A stretch of 57,718 bases of DNA from a virus (IMGVR_UViG_3300025769_000008:1-57718); one strand, 5' to 3'. Positions 36,443 through 44,205 are shown, counted from the stretch's first letter. The notes: generated by a model from the sequence alone, not told the origin. A program made the numbers and translations.

Positions 36443-36627
36443 GTAGATCAAAAAAGTCAAAATCAAGGGTTAATGAGGCAGGTAACTATACAAAACCTGC
36501 TATGCGTAAACGTCAATTCCAAAGAATAAAAGCTGGATCAAAAGGCGGAAAAGCAGGACAATGGAGTGCAAGGAAAGCACAAATGTTAGCAAAAGCATAT
36601 AAAGACGCTGGTGGTGGATATAAATAG
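36439..36627 (+). CDS. Small basic phage protein
   Basis: GNYTKP...GQWSARKAQMLAKAYK..GGGYK motif. Confidence 0.7.
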   Translation: MSRSKKSKSRVNEAGNYTKPAMRKRQFQRIKAGSKGGKAGQWSARKAQMLAKAYKDAGGGYK

Positions 36628-37316
36628 TGTCCTATTTAATCAGCAATATACCTCAGTTTAAATGCTGGGTTAGAAAAGAATTTACTTGTAATCATCAAAG
36701 ATATCACGGGGAATTTATTCATGCACTAGCTATTGCTGTTAATACTATTCCAGATAGATCATTAAGTTTTCAAGTAGTTTTTACTGGTTGTGAAATAGAT
36801 AACTATGAAGATATGCCTAATGTACATGGTGGTGCTATGTGGGCAAGAATGCCAATACAAGCCTTAGTTGCTGATATACCTGTAGAAGAGTGGGCTTTAC
36901 CAATGGAAGATCATTTAGCTCAACCTTGGGATTGTGAATCAAGAGATCACTCAGTAGTTGTAATGGATAGGGTAAGTTCTAGTCCTTGGATTTGTAAAAT
37001 TAATAATGAATTTTATCAAGGCAAGTATTTGTTTACTGTAGATTACACAAATAATTCTATTGCAGATGATCCAGCACAACACAAACAATCTCATGTTTTA
37101 TATATAACAGAAGATTGCGAATGGAAAGGTAATTTAGTTGCATTACCAAATAACAGAGTTAGAGCAACAAGTCCTGCATTATGGAGAACTGGAGAAGGTG
37201 CTCCTGATTTTGCACCATCACAACATATACATTCAGCAGAAGGACATGAAAGTTATTTAGACCCTTTAATTACATTTAACAATTTGTATAGCGAAGGTTT
37301 AAACGAGGAAGACTAA
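36627..37316 (+). CDS. Hypothetical phage protein
   Basis: 229-aa ORF with GTG start; GGAMWARMPI, QPWDC and QHKQSHV motifs. Confidence 0.75.
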   Translation: MSYLISNIPQFKCWVRKEFTCNHQRYHGEFIHALAIAVNTIPDRSLSFQVVFTGCEIDNYEDMPNVHGGAMWARMPIQALVADIPVEEWALPMEDHLAQPWDCESRDHSVVVMDRVSSSPWICKINNEFYQGKYLFTVDYTNNSIADDPAQHKQSHVLYITEDCEWKGNLVALPNNRVRATSPALWRTGEGAPDFAPSQHIHSAEGHESYLDPLITFNNLYSEGLNEED

Positions 37317-37555
37317 TGCCATTAAAAAAATCACAAAGAAGTTTAAAAAATTGGACTAATCAAAAATGGCGAACAAAGTCAGGAAAAAAATCTTCTGAAA
37401 CAGGAGAAAGATATTTACCTGAAAAAGCCATAAAAGCTATGTCTAGTTCTGAATATGCAGCTACTACTAGAAAAAAAAGAGCTGATACAAAAAAAGGTAA
37501 ACAATTTTCTAAGCAACCTAAAAAGGCTGCAAAAATATCAAAGAGGTATAGGTAA
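37316..37555 (+). CDS. Small basic phage protein
   Basis: SLKNWTNQKWRTKSGK..TGERYLP motif. Confidence 0.7.
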   Translation: MPLKKSQRSLKNWTNQKWRTKSGKKSSETGERYLPEKAIKAMSSSEYAATTRKKRADTKKGKQFSKQPKKAAKISKRYR

Positions 37556-37977
37556 TGTATGAATACGCTTGTAAAGTTGAAAGAGTCGTTGATGGTGATA
37601 CTGTTGACGTTGTGTTGGACCTTGGGTTCGATATTCTTTATAAGTCTCGTGTTCGTTTATATGGCATTGATACTCCCGAGTCACGCACTCGTAACAAAGA
37701 TGAGAAGGCTAGAGGAAAAATGGCTGCGTCTTTTTTAGAAGATGCTATTAATAATGGTAAGCAAGTAGTAATACAAACAAAATTAAAAGATTCTAGAGGT
37801 AAATTTGGTAGAGTTTTGGGTGATGTTGTTGTTGATGGAATAAATATTAACCAGTCAATGATAGATAATTATCATGCTGTTGCCTATTTTGGACAAAGCA
37901 AAGAAGCAATAGAAGCAGTACATCAATCTAATAGAACTAGACTTATAGAACTTGGAAAGTTTAGTCCAGTAAAATAA
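37555..37977 (+). CDS. Thermonuclease (SNase-like)
   Basis: RVVDGDT, RVRLYGIDTPE and GKFGRVLG motifs. Confidence 0.85.
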   Translation: MYEYACKVERVVDGDTVDVVLDLGFDILYKSRVRLYGIDTPESRTRNKDEKARGKMAASFLEDAINNGKQVVIQTKLKDSRGKFGRVLGDVVVDGININQSMIDNYHAVAYFGQSKEAIEAVHQSNRTRLIELGKFSPVK

Positions 37978-38327
37978 TGGAACAAGCAATCCAATTTATT
38001 AATGAAGTAGGTTTTCCAATAGCTGCTGCATTAGGACTAGGTTTTTTTATATGGAAGCTGATTAATAGAATTATTGACGGCATGGAAACTAAACTTGATG
38101 TGTTAGATGATAAGGTAGCAGATCAAATAGCACAAATGGAAGAGAGACTAGGTACTAAGTTAGATTCACAGCATGGTATTTTAGTTGCTTTAATTGATAG
38201 AGTAAGGTCATTAGATAACGAAATTATTAGACAAGATACACTTATAAAAACAATACTAGGTGTACCTCAACTAATAGATAGCAATAAAATCGCTAAAGCT
38301 GATCGTGATGATCAGAGGAAGGATTAA
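37977..38327 (+). CDS. Membrane protein with coiled coil (holin-like)
   Basis: VGFPIAAALGLGFFIW TM segment followed by a coiled coil. Confidence 0.55.
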   Translation: MEQAIQFINEVGFPIAAALGLGFFIWKLINRIIDGMETKLDVLDDKVADQIAQMEERLGTKLDSQHGILVALIDRVRSLDNEIIRQDTLIKTILGVPQLIDSNKIAKADRDDQRKD

Positions 38328-38789
38328 ATGCACATAGATAATTTAATAGCAATTATAGCTATTGTTTTTTTTACTTTACTTGTATCTTTAACAGTAGAAG
38401 CAGATCAAATAGTTCATAAATTTAAATCACCAAGTTTTAGCGGTGAAGCTACATCTAGTCATTATTTAACTATTGAAAATCAAGAACACAGCAGAAAGCT
38501 TACAATTAAAGAAGAAATAAAAGCTTTGCAAGATGAAATAGAAAGAGAAAAAGAAAATTCTACTTTAGCAAGGTTTATGCGTAATTTAGAGTCAAGAGTT
38601 TACGCAGAGCTTTCTAGACAATTAGTTAATAATTTATTTGGTGAAACACCACAAAGCGAAGGAATAATAACATTAGAAGGAAACATCATTGAATATACAA
38701 GTGATGGTGTAACTCTTACTTTAAAAATAACAGAAGCAGATGGAACAGTTACGGAAATTACCATACCTATCGGTACTTTTACTTTCTAG
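38328..38789 (+). CDS. csgF: Curli assembly protein CsgF-like
   Basis: Signal peptide, then IVHKFKSPSFSG (CsgF F.NP.FGG), F..NLESRVYAELSRQL and G.VTEITIP. Confidence 0.8.
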   Translation: MHIDNLIAIIAIVFFTLLVSLTVEADQIVHKFKSPSFSGEATSSHYLTIENQEHSRKLTIKEEIKALQDEIEREKENSTLARFMRNLESRVYAELSRQLVNNLFGETPQSEGIITLEGNIIEYTSDGVTLTLKITEADGTVTEITIPIGTFTF

Positions 38790-39612
38790 TTGTTCTATAT
38801 TCCAACAGTTTGAAGATACTTATGAACAAAGGTTTCAGGACAAAAATATTGTTACAATATCTGAATTGCAATCAAAAGAACTTGCAAATGTAGCTAAACC
38901 TTTGGTACAACCAGTAGTAGCTGTTTATCCTACTGCATTTACAGATCAAACAGGACAAAGAAAAAGCAATAGTGAGTTTGCTTTATTTAGTACAGCTATA
39001 ACACAACAACCTAGTGCATTATTAATTAGAGCTTTAAAACACGCTAGTAATGGTCAATTTTTTAGAGTTGTTGAAAGAGTAGGTTTAGATAATTTAACAA
39101 AAGAAAGACAACTTATAAGGTCGGCAAGAGAGCAATTGTCTGATGAAGAAGAACATAAAAAAACTCTACGACCTTTATTGTTTGCAGGGGTTTTAATAGA
39201 AGGTGCTGTAATTTCTTATGAAAGCAATCTTTCTACAGGTGGTACGGGGGCTAGATATTTAGGTATAGGCTCTAGTATTCAATATAGAGAGGATAGTGTA
39301 ACAGTATCTTTGCGTATGGTTTCGGTGGCAACAGGAGAAATACTTATAGAAGTAATGACTGAAAAAACAATTTTTAGTTATGGAAAATCTGAAGATGTAT
39401 TTCGTTTTATAGAAATGGGAACAGAACTTGTAGAAATAGAATTAGGTAATTCTAGAAATGAGTCCTCTACCATAGCTTTAATGAAAGCTATTGAAAGTGC
39501 TGTACTAGAATTAATAAATGTCGGATACGACAGGAGTTTTTGGAAACATGAAGAAGTTGAAATTAATAAGCCTGATTGCGATGCTGATTGCATTGCCAAT
39601 ATACGGGGCTGA
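38740..39612 (+). CDS. csgG: Curli secretion pore CsgG-like lipoprotein
   Basis: Lipobox LSSC; VAVY..FTDQTGQRK, FSTAITQ, FRVVERVGLDNLTKERQLIR, GGTGARYLGIG and VTVSLRMVSVATGEIL. Confidence 0.9.
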   Translation: MEQLRKLPYLSVLLLSSCSIFQQFEDTYEQRFQDKNIVTISELQSKELANVAKPLVQPVVAVYPTAFTDQTGQRKSNSEFALFSTAITQQPSALLIRALKHASNGQFFRVVERVGLDNLTKERQLIRSAREQLSDEEEHKKTLRPLLFAGVLIEGAVISYESNLSTGGTGARYLGIGSSIQYREDSVTVSLRMVSVATGEILIEVMTEKTIFSYGKSEDVFRFIEMGTELVEIELGNSRNESSTIALMKAIESAVLELINVGYDRSFWKHEEVEINKPDCDADCIANIRG

Positions 39613-40279
39613 TAACGAAATATATATTGATCAGTCAGGAACTGGTGCAAATATAGATTTAGAACAATTAGGTATTTCTAATATTATTGGAGGTTCTGAT
39701 GCGTCAGCAGGTAACATGACTGCTTTAGACCTAGATGGTAATTCAATGACATTGGATATAAACATGATAGGCGGAACAAATAAATTTTTAGGAGATATTT
39801 GGGCTGATAATTTTACTGGGTTTTATGAATTTACTGGAGGAAGCAATACTTTTAATATACAAGTTGATCCTTCAAATACTTATGGAGCAGATGATTCTGA
39901 TCAAAATGTACAAGTAACAGGAAGTTCTAATACATTTACTTTAAATCAAGCAACAACTGCTTTAGCTGATAGTTTAAATTTAGATTGGATAATACAAGGT
40001 TCTAACAATACTATTACATCAACTATTAATATTGATAATGCTACTAATTACATGGATATAGATGGTTCTGATAATACTTTGACCTATGTAGGTACTGGTG
40101 TTACAGCTTCTGCTGGTGGTTATTTTTACTTAGATCATACAGGAGGATCAAGAACTTTTAATATTCAACAATTAAGTACACAAGATAATGATTGGCTCAA
40201 AATTTTATCTACAAGCGGTACTTCTGCTTCTACTGTTTGTGTCATTCAAAACGACCAAGGTACAAGCACAAGTTGCTGA
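39548..40279 (+). CDS. Secreted curlin-like repeat protein
   Basis: Signal peptide, DNEIYIDQSG N-terminus and repeated xQxGxxN / GxxNT beta-strand units; adjacent to csgG. Confidence 0.65.
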   Translation: MKKLKLISLIAMLIALPIYGADNEIYIDQSGTGANIDLEQLGISNIIGGSDASAGNMTALDLDGNSMTLDINMIGGTNKFLGDIWADNFTGFYEFTGGSNTFNIQVDPSNTYGADDSDQNVQVTGSSNTFTLNQATTALADSLNLDWIIQGSNNTITSTINIDNATNYMDIDGSDNTLTYVGTGVTASAGGYFYLDHTGGSRTFNIQQLSTQDNDWLKILSTSGTSASTVCVIQNDQGTSTSC

Positions 40280-41303
40280 TATAGGAGATATATCTGAACT
40301 TAATGGTTTTGCTCAAATAGTTAGAGATAAACCATATGTAGCTAATTTAGATTTTGCAATACAAAGTAATGATGAAGCCATAACTACAAATGGAAGAATG
40401 GCTATTACTTTTTTAGATGATAGCAAGGTAAAACTTACAGAACATTCACAATTAATTATTGATGAATATATTTATGATCCTGATCCTAGTAAAGCCAAAA
40501 TGGCTCTTACATTTGGTTTAGGTACAGCTCGTTTTATAACTGGCAATCTTAATCGTATAGATAAACAAAACATAAGTCTTAAAACACCTACTGCTGATAT
40601 CGCTATAAGAGGAACGGATTTTACAGCTACAGTAGATGAATTAGGTCGTAGTTTAATAATACTGCTTCCAGACCCATTTGGGCTTTCTAGTGGCGAAATA
40701 GAAGTTGTGACTGCTATGGGTACTGTAATACTAAATAAGCCCTACGAAGCGACTACAGTAAGCGTATTTGAGTCTGCACCAAGTAAACCTGTTATTTTAG
40801 ATTTAACATTAAATCAAATAGATAATATGTTAATTGTTACTCCTCCCAAAAAAGAAGCAGTTATTGAAGAACAAATAGTCACTAAAAAAGCAAATATATT
40901 AGATTTTAATGATTTAGATATAGATTATTTAGCAGAAGATTTATTGGCTGAAGATGATTTAGAATTTAATGAATTAGATATAAATTATTTAGATGTTAAT
41001 TTTTTAGAAGATTTACTTAATGTTTTAGATGCTTTAGCAATAGAAGAAGAGGAAGATCAATTAGCACAAGCTACAAGCACACAAATAACAGGTACATTAT
41101 TAGGTAGAGACCCTGATACACAAATTACAACATTAATAACAGGTAATGTTATAAGTATGAGAAGAAGCATAAATGAATCTGTAAGAATAGATTTAGATGC
41201 CAGTAATTCTTATACAGTTATATTTATACAGGATGGAGTTTCTAATGTAGTTAAAGTAAATGGTGGTAGTGATTCAACAATAACTATAACTCAGAGTGAT
41301 TAA
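40188..41303 (+). CDS. FecR-domain periplasmic protein
   Basis: Signal peptide; ITFLDDSKVKLTEHS, GTARFITG and KTPTADIAIRGTDF FecR-domain motifs. Confidence 0.8.
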   Translation: MIGSKFYLQAVLLLLLFVSFKTTKVQAQVADIGDISELNGFAQIVRDKPYVANLDFAIQSNDEAITTNGRMAITFLDDSKVKLTEHSQLIIDEYIYDPDPSKAKMALTFGLGTARFITGNLNRIDKQNISLKTPTADIAIRGTDFTATVDELGRSLIILLPDPFGLSSGEIEVVTAMGTVILNKPYEATTVSVFESAPSKPVILDLTLNQIDNMLIVTPPKKEAVIEEQIVTKKANILDFNDLDIDYLAEDLLAEDDLEFNELDINYLDVNFLEDLLNVLDALAIEEEEDQLAQATSTQITGTLLGRDPDTQITTLITGNVISMRRSINESVRIDLDASNSYTVIFIQDGVSNVVKVNGGSDSTITITQSD

Positions 41304-43063
41304 TGAAAAAAATATTATTAGTTTTAGTTATAGTTTTATTTATTCCATTTATTACGCAAGTAAATATATTACAAATAATAAAACTTAAAACATTTGATGC
41401 TTTTGTAACTAAACAAAAACCTTCAGAATATTTTACTATTTTAAATATAACAGAAGAAGATATAGCTAATGAAGGTGGTTATCCCTTATCTAGACAAACA
41501 CTAGCACAAATACAAATAAATCTTTTACGTCAGGGTGCTATAGGAGTTGGATGGGTTATAGCTTTTCCACAACCTGATAGATTTGGTGGTGATTTTGAAT
41601 TTGCTAATGCTTTATCTTTTTCTCCTAGTGTATTAGCTATGTTTGAAGGCAAAGGAGATTATCCTCCTACAATAGGCACAGTTATATTGGGTGACGACAT
41701 TGGAGGTTTAAAAGCTGAAGGGGTAATACAAAACATAGAATTATTACAACAAAATGCAAATCAAGGTTTAGCTGTTGCAAGAACTGATATAGATAATTTA
41801 GTAAGAAGATTGCCTTTACTTATGAGAAGCAATGATGGATGGGTAGCTTCTTATGGAACAGAAGTTTTAAAAGTATTAGCTGGTGCGGATACTTATGTTA
41901 TTAAAACTAATGTTAATGGCATTGAAGAAATAAGAGTTAAAGGCTTACCGCCAGTTAAAGTAGATAGTTTTGGTAGAAAGTGGATTAGCTGGGTTAATAC
42001 ACCACAAACAAATTTACAAGAAATGAACGTGGAAGGTAAGTTTGTTTTTGTAGGTTTTACAGCAAAAGGCATAATGCCACAAATTGCTACACCAGCAGGT
42101 TTATTAGAACCACACAAAATACAAGCTGCATTAGCTGAATCTATACTTATACAAAATAGTCCACACATACCTGACTATGCACTAGCAGTAGAAGCAGTAT
42201 TATTAATTTCAATGATATTGTTAACTTGGGTGTTAATAAATATTTTTGGAATATCGTTAGGAATACTATTTACCAGTCTATTGTTTTTTTCTACAGCAGG
42301 AAGTGGGTATTATTTAATACAACAAGGTTTATTAATAGACGTAACATGGTCGCTTATATCTCAGTTTATTACAGCAGCAACAGCTTTTTATTTAAGATTT
42401 AGAGAACAATACAAATTAAGACAACAAATAAAACAACAGTTTGGAAAATACTTAGACCCAAGGATGGTTAAGAAATTACAAGATAATCCTGAACTTTGTC
42501 AGGTTAATGGTAAAAGAGTTGATTGTTCTATTATTTTTACAGACCTTAGAGGATTTACTAGCTTATCGGAATCAGTTGAACCTGAAGTAGTAACCTACAT
42601 TATGAATTCTGTATTAGATGCACAAGTACAAGCAGCTAATAAATATTTTGGATGCACAGATAAATTTATTGGAGATGCTGGTATGTTTCATTGGAATACT
42701 ATTATTCCACAAGAAGATCATTACAATCTTGCTTTACAAGCAGCAAAAGAAATAGAAAAAAATATTGACCAGTTAAATATTAAATTTGCAGAAGAAGATA
42801 TACCTGAAGTTGCTATTGGTATAGGTGTAAATTCTGGAGTTTGTATAGCTGGTAACTTTGGAGCAACAGATAGATTTGCATTTAGCCTTATAGGAGACCC
42901 TTGTAATGTAGCAGCTAGACTAGAATCAAGTACAAAGGTTGCAGGAGTAGGAGTTTTGATAGGTGAAGAAACTGCCAAATATAGCGATTTTAAGCTACAA
43001 TTATTAGAACCTATAGAAGTAAAAGGTAAAGCTAAACCATTACAGGTTTATACATGGGCATAA
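41303..43063 (+). CDS. CHASE2-domain membrane adenylyl cyclase (class III)
   Basis: CHASE2 motifs (GGYPLSR, FPQPDR, D.DNLVRRLPL), three TM helices, and cyclase motifs FTDLRGFT, DKFIGD, IGIGVNSG and SLIGDPCNVAARLE. Confidence 0.92.
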   Translation: MKKILLVLVIVLFIPFITQVNILQIIKLKTFDAFVTKQKPSEYFTILNITEEDIANEGGYPLSRQTLAQIQINLLRQGAIGVGWVIAFPQPDRFGGDFEFANALSFSPSVLAMFEGKGDYPPTIGTVILGDDIGGLKAEGVIQNIELLQQNANQGLAVARTDIDNLVRRLPLLMRSNDGWVASYGTEVLKVLAGADTYVIKTNVNGIEEIRVKGLPPVKVDSFGRKWISWVNTPQTNLQEMNVEGKFVFVGFTAKGIMPQIATPAGLLEPHKIQAALAESILIQNSPHIPDYALAVEAVLLISMILLTWVLINIFGISLGILFTSLLFFSTAGSGYYLIQQGLLIDVTWSLISQFITAATAFYLRFREQYKLRQQIKQQFGKYLDPRMVKKLQDNPELCQVNGKRVDCSIIFTDLRGFTSLSESVEPEVVTYIMNSVLDAQVQAANKYFGCTDKFIGDAGMFHWNTIIPQEDHYNLALQAAKEIEKNIDQLNIKFAEEDIPEVAIGIGVNSGVCIAGNFGATDRFAFSLIGDPCNVAARLESSTKVAGVGVLIGEETAKYSDFKLQLLEPIEVKGKAKPLQVYTWA

Positions 43064-43066
43064 AAT

Positions 43067-43462
43067 ATGAGTAAAGTTTTAATAGGTATAATTGCAGTAT
43101 TATTAATAATTGGTTATTTTCTTTGGAATGAAAATGCAAGATTATCTGCATTAAATCAAGCTTTTGAATTACGGGATCAAGAACAACAAGCTGCTATAGA
43201 GTCTTTGCAAAATGATTTCAAATTGCAAACAGAAGGTTTATTAGAGATACAAAGTAAAAATCAAGCTATAGAAGCTGAAATGTCTAGATACTTAGATGTA
43301 TTTAAAAGACATGATTTAACTAAACTAGCAGCAGCTAAACCATCTTTACTAGAGCCTAGGGTTAATAAAGGAACTAAAAATGTATTTGATAGTATTGAAG
43401 AAGACAGTCGCAGCATTGATGATCTTGATGATGGTCTCCAGTTGCAGTCTGTTTCCAAGTAA
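43067..43462 (+). CDS. Putative inner-membrane spanin (Rz-like)
   Basis: N-terminal TM anchor plus coiled coil; overlaps the downstream lipoprotein gene. Confidence 0.6.
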   Translation: MSKVLIGIIAVLLIIGYFLWNENARLSALNQAFELRDQEQQAAIESLQNDFKLQTEGLLEIQSKNQAIEAEMSRYLDVFKRHDLTKLAAAKPSLLEPRVNKGTKNVFDSIEEDSRSIDDLDDGLQLQSVSK

Positions 43463-43760
43463 ACAAAACGTACAAATAACTACTAAAGCTTTAGAAAGGC
43501 AAATAGCACAGCCTGTTATGCCTAGAGAAATAGATTTAAAAGAACCATATTGGTATGTAGTTTCAGATAAAAACATAGATGAGTTTTTGGCTAGAGTTGA
43601 AAAAGAACATGGGCAAATAGTTTTCTTTGCTATGTCTGTACCTGATTATGAACTCATGTCTTACAATATGCAGGAATTAAAGAGATATATAAATGAACTT
43701 AAACAGGTTGTGGTCTATTATAGAAAAGTTACTACAAATAAACCTGAAACAGGGGAGTAA
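43380..43760 (+). CDS. Putative outer-membrane spanin lipoprotein (Rz1-like)
   Basis: Lipobox VSSC; overlaps the Rz-like gene and sits next to the endolysin. Confidence 0.6.
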   Translation: MYLIVLKKTVAALMILMMVSSCSLFPSKQNVQITTKALERQIAQPVMPREIDLKEPYWYVVSDKNIDEFLARVEKEHGQIVFFAMSVPDYELMSYNMQELKRYINELKQVVVYYRKVTTNKPETGE

Positions 43761-43761
43761 T

Positions 43762-44205
43762 ATGAACATATCACAAGAGGGGATAGCTTTAATTAAAAAG
43801 TTTGAAGGTTGTGAATTAGAAGCTTATCAAGATTCTGTAGGTGTTTGGACTATAGGATACGGACATACTAAAGAAGTAAAAGAAGGTGACAAAATAAATC
43901 AAGATGAAGCCGAACATTTATTACAAGAAGAGATGCCTGAATACGAAGGCTATATAAATGACATGGTTACAGTACCTTTAAAACAATGTCAGTTTGATGC
44001 TTTAGTTTGTTGGGTCTATAACCTAGGACCAACTAATCTTGGCAATTCAACATTATTGAAATTACTTAATGCAGGTGATTATCATACAACACCATCACAA
44101 ATTAAAAGATGGAATAAAGCTGGAGGAAAAACATTGCAAGGATTAATTAGACGAAGAGAAGCAGAAGCACTTCTTTTTGAAGGTAAAGAATGGATTGAGG
44201 TCTAA
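43762..44205 (+). CDS. Endolysin, GH24 lysozyme
   Basis: IKKFEGC, DSVGVWTIGYGHT and GLIRRREAE motifs. Confidence 0.93.
   Translation: MNISQEGIALIKKFEGCELEAYQDSVGVWTIGYGHTKEVKEGDKINQDEAEHLLQEEMPEYEGYINDMVTVPLKQCQFDALVCWVYNLGPTNLGNSTLLKLLNAGDYHTTPSQIKRWNKAGGKTLQGLIRRREAEALLFEGKEWIEV

Follow-up and report, generated by a model that had tools for sequence, protein, structure and literature searches.

Composition of the cassette

The virus record IMGVR_UViG_3300025769_000008:1-57718 (57,718 nt, 57.7 kb; the whole stretch is referred to here as the window) carries a cassette of six plus-strand genes at 37977-43063, which encode a 116-aa protein, homologues of the curli secretion proteins CsgF and CsgG, a curlin-like repeat protein, a FecR-domain protein and an adenylyl cyclase with a CHASE2 sensor domain (Table 1). 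Terminal repeats are present and the record has a completeness rating of 100 %. Podovirus-type packaging and tail genes were found, and the core genes share 63-68 % DNA identity with HTVC023P, HTVC027P and 023Pt_psg01. Judged from these sequence features, the window is a complete marine podovirus of the HTVC023P type.

An earlier interpretation made from the DNA alone (the sequence-only reading) had described five tightly coupled genes at 38328-43063 as a complete surface-sensing circuit, in which the state of a secretion pore or fibre is relayed to cyclic AMP (cAMP) synthesis in the infected cell. The open reading frames (ORFs) bear out all five genes, Pfam matches identify all but the repeat protein, and neighbouring genes abut or overlap. 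A sixth conserved gene, immediately upstream, had been overlooked. There is no intergenic space in the cassette, the gaps between successive genes from the 116-aa gene to the cyclase gene being 0, -50, -65, -92 and -1 nt. The cassette occupies 5.1 of the 57.7 kb (~9 % of the phage genome). Its G+C content (GC) is 0.315, below that of the rest of the genome (0.368).

The export signals that had been claimed were recovered as an N-terminal hydrophobic segment in each of CsgF, the repeat protein, the FecR protein and the cyclase, and as a lipobox-like LSSC at residues 15-18 of CsgG. The domain assignments on which the predicted spread across the envelope depends also hold. Overall, the sequence-only reading is partly supported: its domains and precedents stand, and its novelty does not.

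Table 1. Genes of the cassette and adjacent lysis genes in the window
Feature	Coordinates	Strand	Evidence or remark
116-aa membrane/coiled-coil protein	37977..38327	+	phrog_18771 1.7e-15; 'HK' in PMC9599517
CsgF-like secreted protein (predicted cap/adaptor of CsgG pore)	38328..38789	+	PF10614 4.3e-17
CsgG-like outer-membrane lipoprotein (type VIII secretion system channel)	38740..39612	+	PF03783 3.3e-50
Curlin-like secreted all-beta repeat protein (CsgB/A position)	ORF 39518..40279, probable start 39548	+	Profile comparison, model
Signal-peptide FecR-domain protein	40188..41303	+	PF04773 5.7e-9; phrog_37870 4.1e-71
CHASE2 sensor fused to class III adenylyl cyclase, membrane	41303..43063	+	PF05226 3.8e-27; PF00211 3.3e-15
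Rz-like i-spanin (adjacent, outside the cassette)	43067..43462	+	phrog_739 1.6e-12
Rz1-like o-spanin, lipobox-like VSSC (adjacent)	43380..43760	+	phrog_812 1.6e-12
Endolysin, phage lysozyme (adjacent)	43693..44205	+	PF00959 4.1e-50; phrog_7 1.7e-60

Curli-type secretion proteins

The PF10614 match of CsgF scored 62.9 bits (cut-off 25.8), and the protein also matched phrog_35372 (4.3e-41) and has its hydrophobic segment at residues 5-23. A phmmer search of PDB sequences with CsgF (E <= 1) returned no CsgF chain, only four chance-level matches (E 0.55-0.95). CsgG matched the E. coli CsgG chains in PDB at 1.4e-46 across residues 46-271.

Relative to the E. coli curli system (csgBAC-csgDEFG), the homology of CsgG is thus clear and the CsgF family is shared by Pfam assignment, whereas the window lacks CsgE and its subunit is only distantly related to curlin. 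In the alignment with E. coli CsgG, the constriction loop of the window protein is one residue longer and has Leu in place of the Asn preceding the conserved Phe, these being what we take to be the loop residues of the E. coli protein. The sequence-only reading had recognized no csgE homologue, and a search of the entire phage for CsgE (PF10627) was likewise empty at E <= 1. The alphaproteobacterial type VIII secretion systems (T8SS) described by Wittmers et al. (PMC9599517) also lack CsgE, and CsgC and CsgD are reported there to be absent.

The window CsgG also matched OR851715.1, an unannotated record of 1499 bp named Salmonella phage S.Kent 1-2-1, with 41.8 % identity over 84 % of its length. 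This record may be a mere bacterial csgG fragment.

The repeat protein is 243-253 aa long, depending on whether it starts at 39548 or 39518. Its AlphaFold2 model consists of strands only (predicted local distance difference test score, pLDDT, 83.6; predicted template modelling score 0.80). The fold search does not name the protein, because Foldseek found 0 matches in PDB at E <= 0.001 and what it listed were assorted beta-helices. Profile comparison was more informative. In some related phages, fecR and the cyclase gene are separated by a second repeat gene, which clearly passes the Pfam family Curlin_rpt (3.1e-13 at L040:5718-6500). When the family of the window protein (A2, 19 sequences) was aligned with this Curlin_rpt-positive paralogue family (A5, 7 sequences) using hhalign, the probability was 98.5 % and E was 2.6e-15. 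With a sub-threshold Pfam score, homology to a curlin-positive family and no fold match, the repeat protein is, on the profile evidence, a distant curlin relative. The label 'curlin-like' has to be qualified in this sense. No other curlin gene was found anywhere in the phage genome, the more canonical curlin gene of related phages having been lost from the window.

FecR-domain protein and CHASE2 adenylyl cyclase

In the model of the FecR protein, residues 30-205 are confident, an acidic linker (213-296) is disordered (pLDDT < 50) and a small C-terminal beta domain has pLDDT ~65-72. By Foldseek, the N-terminal domain matched 4m0h (3e-4), a putative anti-sigma factor, and 6ovk (8e-4), the cell-surface signalling domain of PupR. 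A signal-like hydrophobic segment occupies residues 2-20 and the conserved domain starts at about residue 30, so that the ORF has no room for a cytoplasmic anti-sigma domain at its N-terminus. No sigma factor (Sigma70_r2) was found in the phage. The periplasmic domain fold is common to the window protein and FecR/PupR anti-sigma signalling, but the former has a signal peptide where the anti-sigma domain sits in the latter, and the phage lacks a sigma factor and the cassette a TonB-dependent transducer gene. The protein has the FecR fold and is not a FecR-type anti-sigma factor.

The C-terminal domain (residues 296-371, 41073-41300) terminates in ITITQSD, as curlin-like protein C-termini do, and a final I-x-I-x-Q-x-D strand is common to this beta domain and the curlin-like proteins. 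The likeness of the FecR C-terminus to the curlin paralogue family was below significance (hhalign E 5.7e-4 with a probability of only 29 %; controls 0.14 and 0.97), as was its resemblance by Foldseek, over 61 columns, to 5ix9, a 'cell surface anchoring domain' (E 0.029, template modelling score 0.69).

In the cyclase (586 aa), PF05226 extends across residues 10-310 and PF00211 across 407-579, with hydrophobic segments at residues 4-22 and a second membrane block from ~294. The best PDB relative is the catalytic domain of Pseudomonas aeruginosa CyaB (1e-23; aligned to 3r5g). Among 23 aligned relatives, D414, K454, D458 and R539 are invariant and N535 is found in 21, while position 528 is Ser in 14 (and in the window), Thr in seven and Asp in two. 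We take D414 and D458 to be the metal-binding residues, K454 and S528 to specify adenine and N535 and R539 to stabilize the transition state, as in the class III cyclase literature. From these residues, the cyclase looks active and ATP-specific and is a predicted cAMP maker. The two relatives that depart from Asn at position 535, both having Ser, are myovirus-type cyclases (L088:2040-4088 and L089:7204-9240). Podovirus cyclases lack a C-terminal extension of ~100 aa found in their bacterial and myovirus-type relatives, and those of the phages HTVC008M and Melnitz are 611 and 683 aa long, respectively.

A fecR-type gene lies directly upstream of a full-length CHASE2 cyclase gene, with no Csg match, in eight Campylobacterota loci. 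Together with a biofilm-regulating Burkholderia operon, in which a signal-peptide LysM/FecR protein is encoded beside a CHASE2 histidine kinase (PMC5192318), these loci confirm the earlier statement that FecR-domain genes adjoin those for CHASE2 cyclases in bacteria, the Burkholderia case being kinase-linked. When 80 bacterial loci were picked by likeness to the phage FecR protein, our own CHASE2 hidden Markov model found a CHASE2 ORF in 17. Only CHASE2 domains linked to cyclases went into this model, which may overlook those linked to kinases, and the 63 negative loci (mostly Betaproteobacteria) are therefore not evidence of absence.

A functional parallel is found in Sinorhizobium meliloti. 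Its CHASE2 cyclases CyaD1, CyaD2 and CyaK share their architecture with the window cyclase, an outer-membrane protein lies ahead of the signal, and a periplasmic FecR-domain protein, SMc02177, belongs to the same regulon (PMC13001267, PMC5498481). Deletion of CHASE2 from CyaD1 is reported to give constitutive cAMP (PMC5498481), and the CHASE2 cyclases respond to a plant protein that is sensed via NsrA, a barrel in the outer membrane (PMC13001267). In S. meliloti the signal is read out by Clr, a CRP-type regulator, whereas neither the phage nor its presumed host family yielded a receptor of that kind (see below). The Campylobacterota pairs and the Burkholderia and S. meliloti precedents support the view that FecR and the CHASE2 cyclase would form an envelope sensor unit.

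These precedents bear on the relay put forward by the sequence-only reading, under which FecR would contact the CsgG/CsgF pore or the fibre and report its state to CHASE2, so that cAMP would track secretion or surface contact. The S. meliloti barrel that feeds CHASE2 cyclases, and an N-terminal FecR fold of the kind that PupR and FecR use towards outer-membrane partners, are consistent with it, as is the finding that phages and three alphaproteobacterial genomes alike keep the five genes together. The resemblances of the FecR C-terminus to curlin repeats and to 5ix9 are weak hints in the same direction, though below significance, and the contact made by FecR is so far only putative. The Campylobacterota pairs exist without Csg genes, and Wittmers et al. 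report that viral curli regions always include FecR and do not always include the cyclase (PMC9599517). By analogy, an outer-membrane-to-cyclase relay is plausible; that the curli pore is its input does not follow, and we consider the relay in this specific form unlikely.

The upstream 116-aa gene

In the 116-aa protein, a coiled coil is predicted and a single hydrophobic segment lies at the N-terminus. The protein matched no Pfam family at E <= 0.01, and nothing significant was found at E <= 10. Its best PHROG match (Table 1) has no function annotated, and a second, weak one is to a holin family (phrog_4898, 7e-4). A protein atlas returned viral hypothetical proteins only, with all named leads below 0.9 (Holin_BhlA 0.87, YvrJ and a CdvA-like coiled coil). 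In the phage collection, tblastn found the gene only in six cassette-bearing myovirus records (four of Melnitz and two of HTVC008M), just upstream of csgF. It is kept in 24/24 cyclase-anchored and 56/63 CsgG-anchored viral loci, and tblastn found no homologue in the three alphaproteobacterial loci described below (L084, L085 and L090). The 116-aa gene is thus a phage-specific sixth member of the module.

Two other identities were considered. Wittmers et al. name the upstream gene 'HK', for histidine kinase (PMC9599517). This label is unsupported, as neither HisKA/DHp nor HATPase_c matched the protein at E <= 10, a search of the entire phage for HATPase_c was empty at E <= 0.1, and the relatives of the protein are viral hypothetical proteins only. 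We recommend that the label should be dropped. A native podovirus holin was rejected because tblastn did not find the gene in HTVC023P or HTVC027P, its matches being confined to cassette-bearing phages.

Precedent and conservation among phages

The cassette is already known, and its genes are real and conserved. The sequence-only reading cited csgF and csgG in myoviruses of SAR11 and OM43, a precedent that is real. It is also too narrow, as HTVC008M (GenBank accession number KC465899) and Melnitz (GenBank accession number MZ577097) have the whole cassette in the same order, and the Melnitz record names the FecR and cyclase domains. Relative to the window, the proteins of these two phages are 30-50 % identical (50 % for HTVC008M CsgG) and a homologue of the 116-aa gene is likewise upstream of csgF; they differ in that fecR is separated from the cyclase gene by a further gene with curlin repeats, and in having longer cyclases and other neighbours.

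The sequence-only reading had also drawn attention to a podovirus-like genome as the carrier. The window is indeed a podovirus, but this is not new, because a podovirus cassette with FecR and cyclase was published in 2022. Wittmers et al. (mSystems, PMC9599517) reported the order HK-CsgF-CsgG-CsgA/B-FecR-(CsgA/B)-AC, AC being the adenylyl cyclase, in nine HTVC023P-type podovirus genomes and in pelagimyophages, together with alphaproteobacterial affinity, cross-family transfer, global distribution and metatranscriptome hits. The window has the same backbone, genes and order as this HTVC023P-type T8SS module and likewise no CsgE, and is without the optional second CsgA/B gene. Literature linking CsgG or curli with HTVC008M, phage FecR or CHASE2 contained no other treatment of the cassette.

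Viral relatives numbered 221 for the cyclase (best 80 taken, at least 71 % identity) and 376 for CsgG (best 80 taken, at least 76 % identity). Among cyclase-anchored loci with > 5.2 kb upstream, 24/24 keep the 116-aa gene, CsgF, CsgG, the repeat gene and FecR in order, and among CsgG-anchored loci with > 4.8 kb downstream, 43/43 keep the repeat gene, FecR and the cyclase. CsgF was upstream of CsgG in 63/63 loci. The sequence-only reading, which depended on co-conservation in other phages, is borne out in this respect. As only the closest relatives were sampled, the counts are silent on how often more distant phages are without the cyclase.

Pairwise ratios of non-synonymous to synonymous substitution rates (dN/dS) between the window and six related loci were 0.03-0.40 for all six genes, similar to those of the spanin and endolysin genes, and 0.11-0.17 for the repeat gene. 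All six genes are under purifying selection by this estimate, far from chance. That they are functionless passengers in the phage, which might be suspected in a host lineage without curli genes of its own (PMC9599517, PMC9004378), is contradicted by this conservation and hardly credible. The numbers of viral relatives of the cyclase and CsgG, 6459 FecR matches at E <= 0.001 among 8000 candidates scored, and a gene order kept across two viral families also speak against it.

The closest loci are mosaic in places. In L008, the spanin and endolysin proteins are 100 % identical to those of the window (dS 0.03-0.07), and the cassette genes have dS of 0.4-0.7. In L009, L010 and L012, the cyclase is 89-92 % identical, and CsgF, CsgG, the repeat protein and FecR only 56-65 %. 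These comparisons suggest one recombination breakpoint where the cyclase gene borders on the spanin genes and another between it and fecR.

Position among the lysis genes

The stop codon of the cyclase gene is 3 nt from the i-spanin gene, which is followed by those for the o-spanin and endolysin. As the spanins and endolysin follow directly, the cassette is embedded in the late lysis gene string of this genome. Buchholz et al. have proposed a pore or lysis role for Melnitz (PMC9004378), and the same could be supposed here, namely that an ungated CsgG-CsgF pore and the small membrane protein, rather than a fibre, alter outer-membrane permeability late in infection or time lysis, with the sensor pair tuning the process. 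The gapless continuation into the lysis genes, the absence of CsgE from the phage, the loss of the canonical curlin gene from the window and the holin-like leads for the 116-aa protein fit this proposal, although those leads are below any threshold. However, the repeat gene is present in all loci with enough flank and under purifying selection, an endolysin homologue is downstream in only 26/45 loci with > 3.5 kb downstream, and the myovirus neighbours differ. We regard a pore-only role as rather improbable.

Just upstream of the cassette are a ferredoxin-annotated PHROG match (phrog_3704, 3.6e-29; auxiliary metabolic category) at 36627-37316 and a staphylococcal-nuclease-like endonuclease gene (PF00565 2.4e-13, phrog_452 1.4e-39) at 37555-37977.

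A terminator and promoter scan, uninformative for this organism, gave no convincing terminator at gene ends within the cassette and fewer promoter-like sites (29) than in shuffles (52.7). Contigs from two runs labelled metatranscriptomic (X2 and X4, from two studies) cover parts of csgG, fecR, the cyclase gene and the spanin genes with 90-99 % likeness; as such libraries can contain DNA, this coverage does not count as proof of transcription, and no meaning attaches to the parts without coverage. None of the sequencing runs contained half of the sampled words.

Counterparts in Alphaproteobacteria

According to the text of PMC9599517, FecR and the cyclase are not found within bacterial T8SS operons. 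A scan with the FecR alignment, using one genome per prokaryote species, gave 399 relatives. Among the best 80, which were kept, eight matches were full length, and csgF and csgG were upstream in 7/8. Three are convincingly cellular, namely L090, on a 396-kb contig of a Henriciella metagenome-assembled genome (MAG), and L084 and L085, in Caulobacteraceae MAGs. Each has csgF, csgG, one or more repeat genes, fecR and a CHASE2 cyclase gene on one strand, with metabolic or transport genes as neighbours. The GC of these cassettes is 0.505-0.527 and that of most flanks 0.53-0.56, with 0.65 for the left flank of L084. The published statement does not hold for these three genomes, though the figures or supplements of that paper may show such operons.

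The alphaproteobacterial clusters have the same five families, order and strand as the window, with protein identity of 28-46 %. They differ in lacking the 116-aa gene, in having either two repeat genes or a single one of 504 aa together with the ~100-aa cyclase extension, and in a GC of ~0.51-0.53 rather than the 0.315 of the phage cassette. Because the same five genes occur in the same order in alphaproteobacterial chromosomes, the linkage of curli and sensor genes either predates the phages or, at the least, is not confined to them.

The other full-length matches are of a different kind. L086-L089 and L091 have one or two copies of the 116-aa gene, and L086 also has IscU/IscA-like genes. 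In the cyclase tree, L088 and L089 group with Melnitz, and L091 groups with bacterial cyclases. L086-L089 were binned as Planctomycetaceae, Candidatus Pelagibacter, Pirellulales and Legionellales MAGs and are probably pelagimyophage contigs mis-binned into these MAGs.

In the order to which the Henriciella genome belongs, 102 of 151 genomes (a set that includes the unpublished G106, which was counted only) have a CsgG-family match and 58 have CHASE2. In 3/151 (G099:C69, G119:C1 and G134:C56), a weaker CsgG match (1e-27 to 1e-30) is ~1.2 kb from a divergently oriented gene for a CHASE2 protein of 632-655 aa, an arrangement that may be another pairing of a CsgG-like protein with CHASE2.

Interpretation

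The cassette probably consists of two units that were co-inherited from, or are shared with, a rare alphaproteobacterial operon, and that would supply a curli-type channel lacking a gate, with a subunit distantly related to curlin, and a cAMP-forming FecR/CHASE2 sensor. The first unit would be a curli-type secretion set, with CsgG as the channel, CsgF as its cap, one curlin-like subunit and no CsgE gate. The second would be an envelope sensor pair, in which a periplasmic FecR protein and an inner-membrane cyclase, whose CHASE2 domain lies in the periplasm, control the production of cAMP from ATP. Both would have been inherited together, with the small membrane/coiled-coil protein added upstream in the phage copies. 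In the infected cell, the pore would assemble and export a fibre, cAMP synthesis would be controlled from the periplasm, and the phage would benefit. The likelihoods that we attach to this two-unit account, to the relay, to the pore-only role and to the non-canonical use of the cyclase considered below overlap, as these are not mutually exclusive.

Several observations weigh against the two-unit account. The subunit scores only 13.6 bits (protein) or 17.3 bits (DNA search) with Curlin_rpt, against a cut-off of 20.7, and in the Foldseek listing the CsgA fibril 8enq was only rank 26 (E 3.4). The second, canonical repeat gene is absent from the window as from 53/68 loci, being present in 15/68. 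Buchholz et al. reported no clumping of Melnitz-infected cells (PMC9004378). A strong CsgG match with a same-strand CHASE2 gene beside it was found only in the Henriciella genome among the 151 of its order, i.e. the operon is rare. Phylogenetic comparison with bacterial operons was suggested by the sequence-only reading as a way to the donor; in the cyclase tree, the bacterial, myovirus-type and podovirus clades form an unresolved three-way fork that identifies no donor. With this fork and the very long podovirus stem (2.27 changes per column), the tree gives no direction of transfer, whether from bacterium to phage or from myovirus to podovirus. The host is presumed from cultured relatives of the phage. 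Finally, PF00027, the cyclic nucleotide monophosphate (cNMP)-binding domain and the only receptor family searched, was found neither in the phage nor in 59/61 genomes of the presumed host family, being present in 2/61. All 61 are MAG-sized samples and belong to the same family as a genome titled Candidatus Pelagibacter sp. TMED203.

As no cNMP receptor was found in the phage or in 59 of the host-family genomes, a cAMP read-out 'in the infected cell' is left unexplained. The class III cyclase domain PF00211 was also found in only 2/61, each time on a contig that also has a CsgG match, ~3.5 kb away, and these two cyclase matches are therefore copies of the cassette itself. Both results would fit a cyclase that bypasses the classical cAMP receptor, its product acting on an unrecognized target or leaving the cell, or the enzyme mainly draining ATP. 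However, the receptor search covered one family in MAG-sized genomes of a presumed host, the K454/S528 pair and the remaining catalytic residues speak for ordinary cAMP synthesis, and the alphaproteobacterial carriers (Henriciella and Caulobacteraceae) have 4 and 7 cNMP-binding matches, respectively. A cyclase used in this way appears distinctly improbable.

The two-unit account could be extended by making FecR the physical coupler, with its PupR-like N-terminal domain on CHASE2 and its C-terminal beta domain on CsgG-CsgF or on the fibre as it forms. A state of 'pore busy or surface engaged' would thereby reach the phage as cAMP, and the signal, which could feed the timing of the lysis genes, would be private to the phage because the presumed host lineage would lack class III cyclases and cNMP receptors of its own. 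We offer this extension as a long shot.

Significance

SAR11 phages are among the most abundant marine viruses, and the cassette would give the host structures that it otherwise lacks. Roles proposed for it in the literature are aggregation or 'sibling capture', exclusion of other phages, import and the timing of lysis. That the usual cAMP receptor was not found in 59/61 genomes of the presumed host family makes the purpose of the cyclase a sharper question, and the presence of the curli-sensor linkage in cellular Alphaproteobacteria means that it can be studied in a bacterium.

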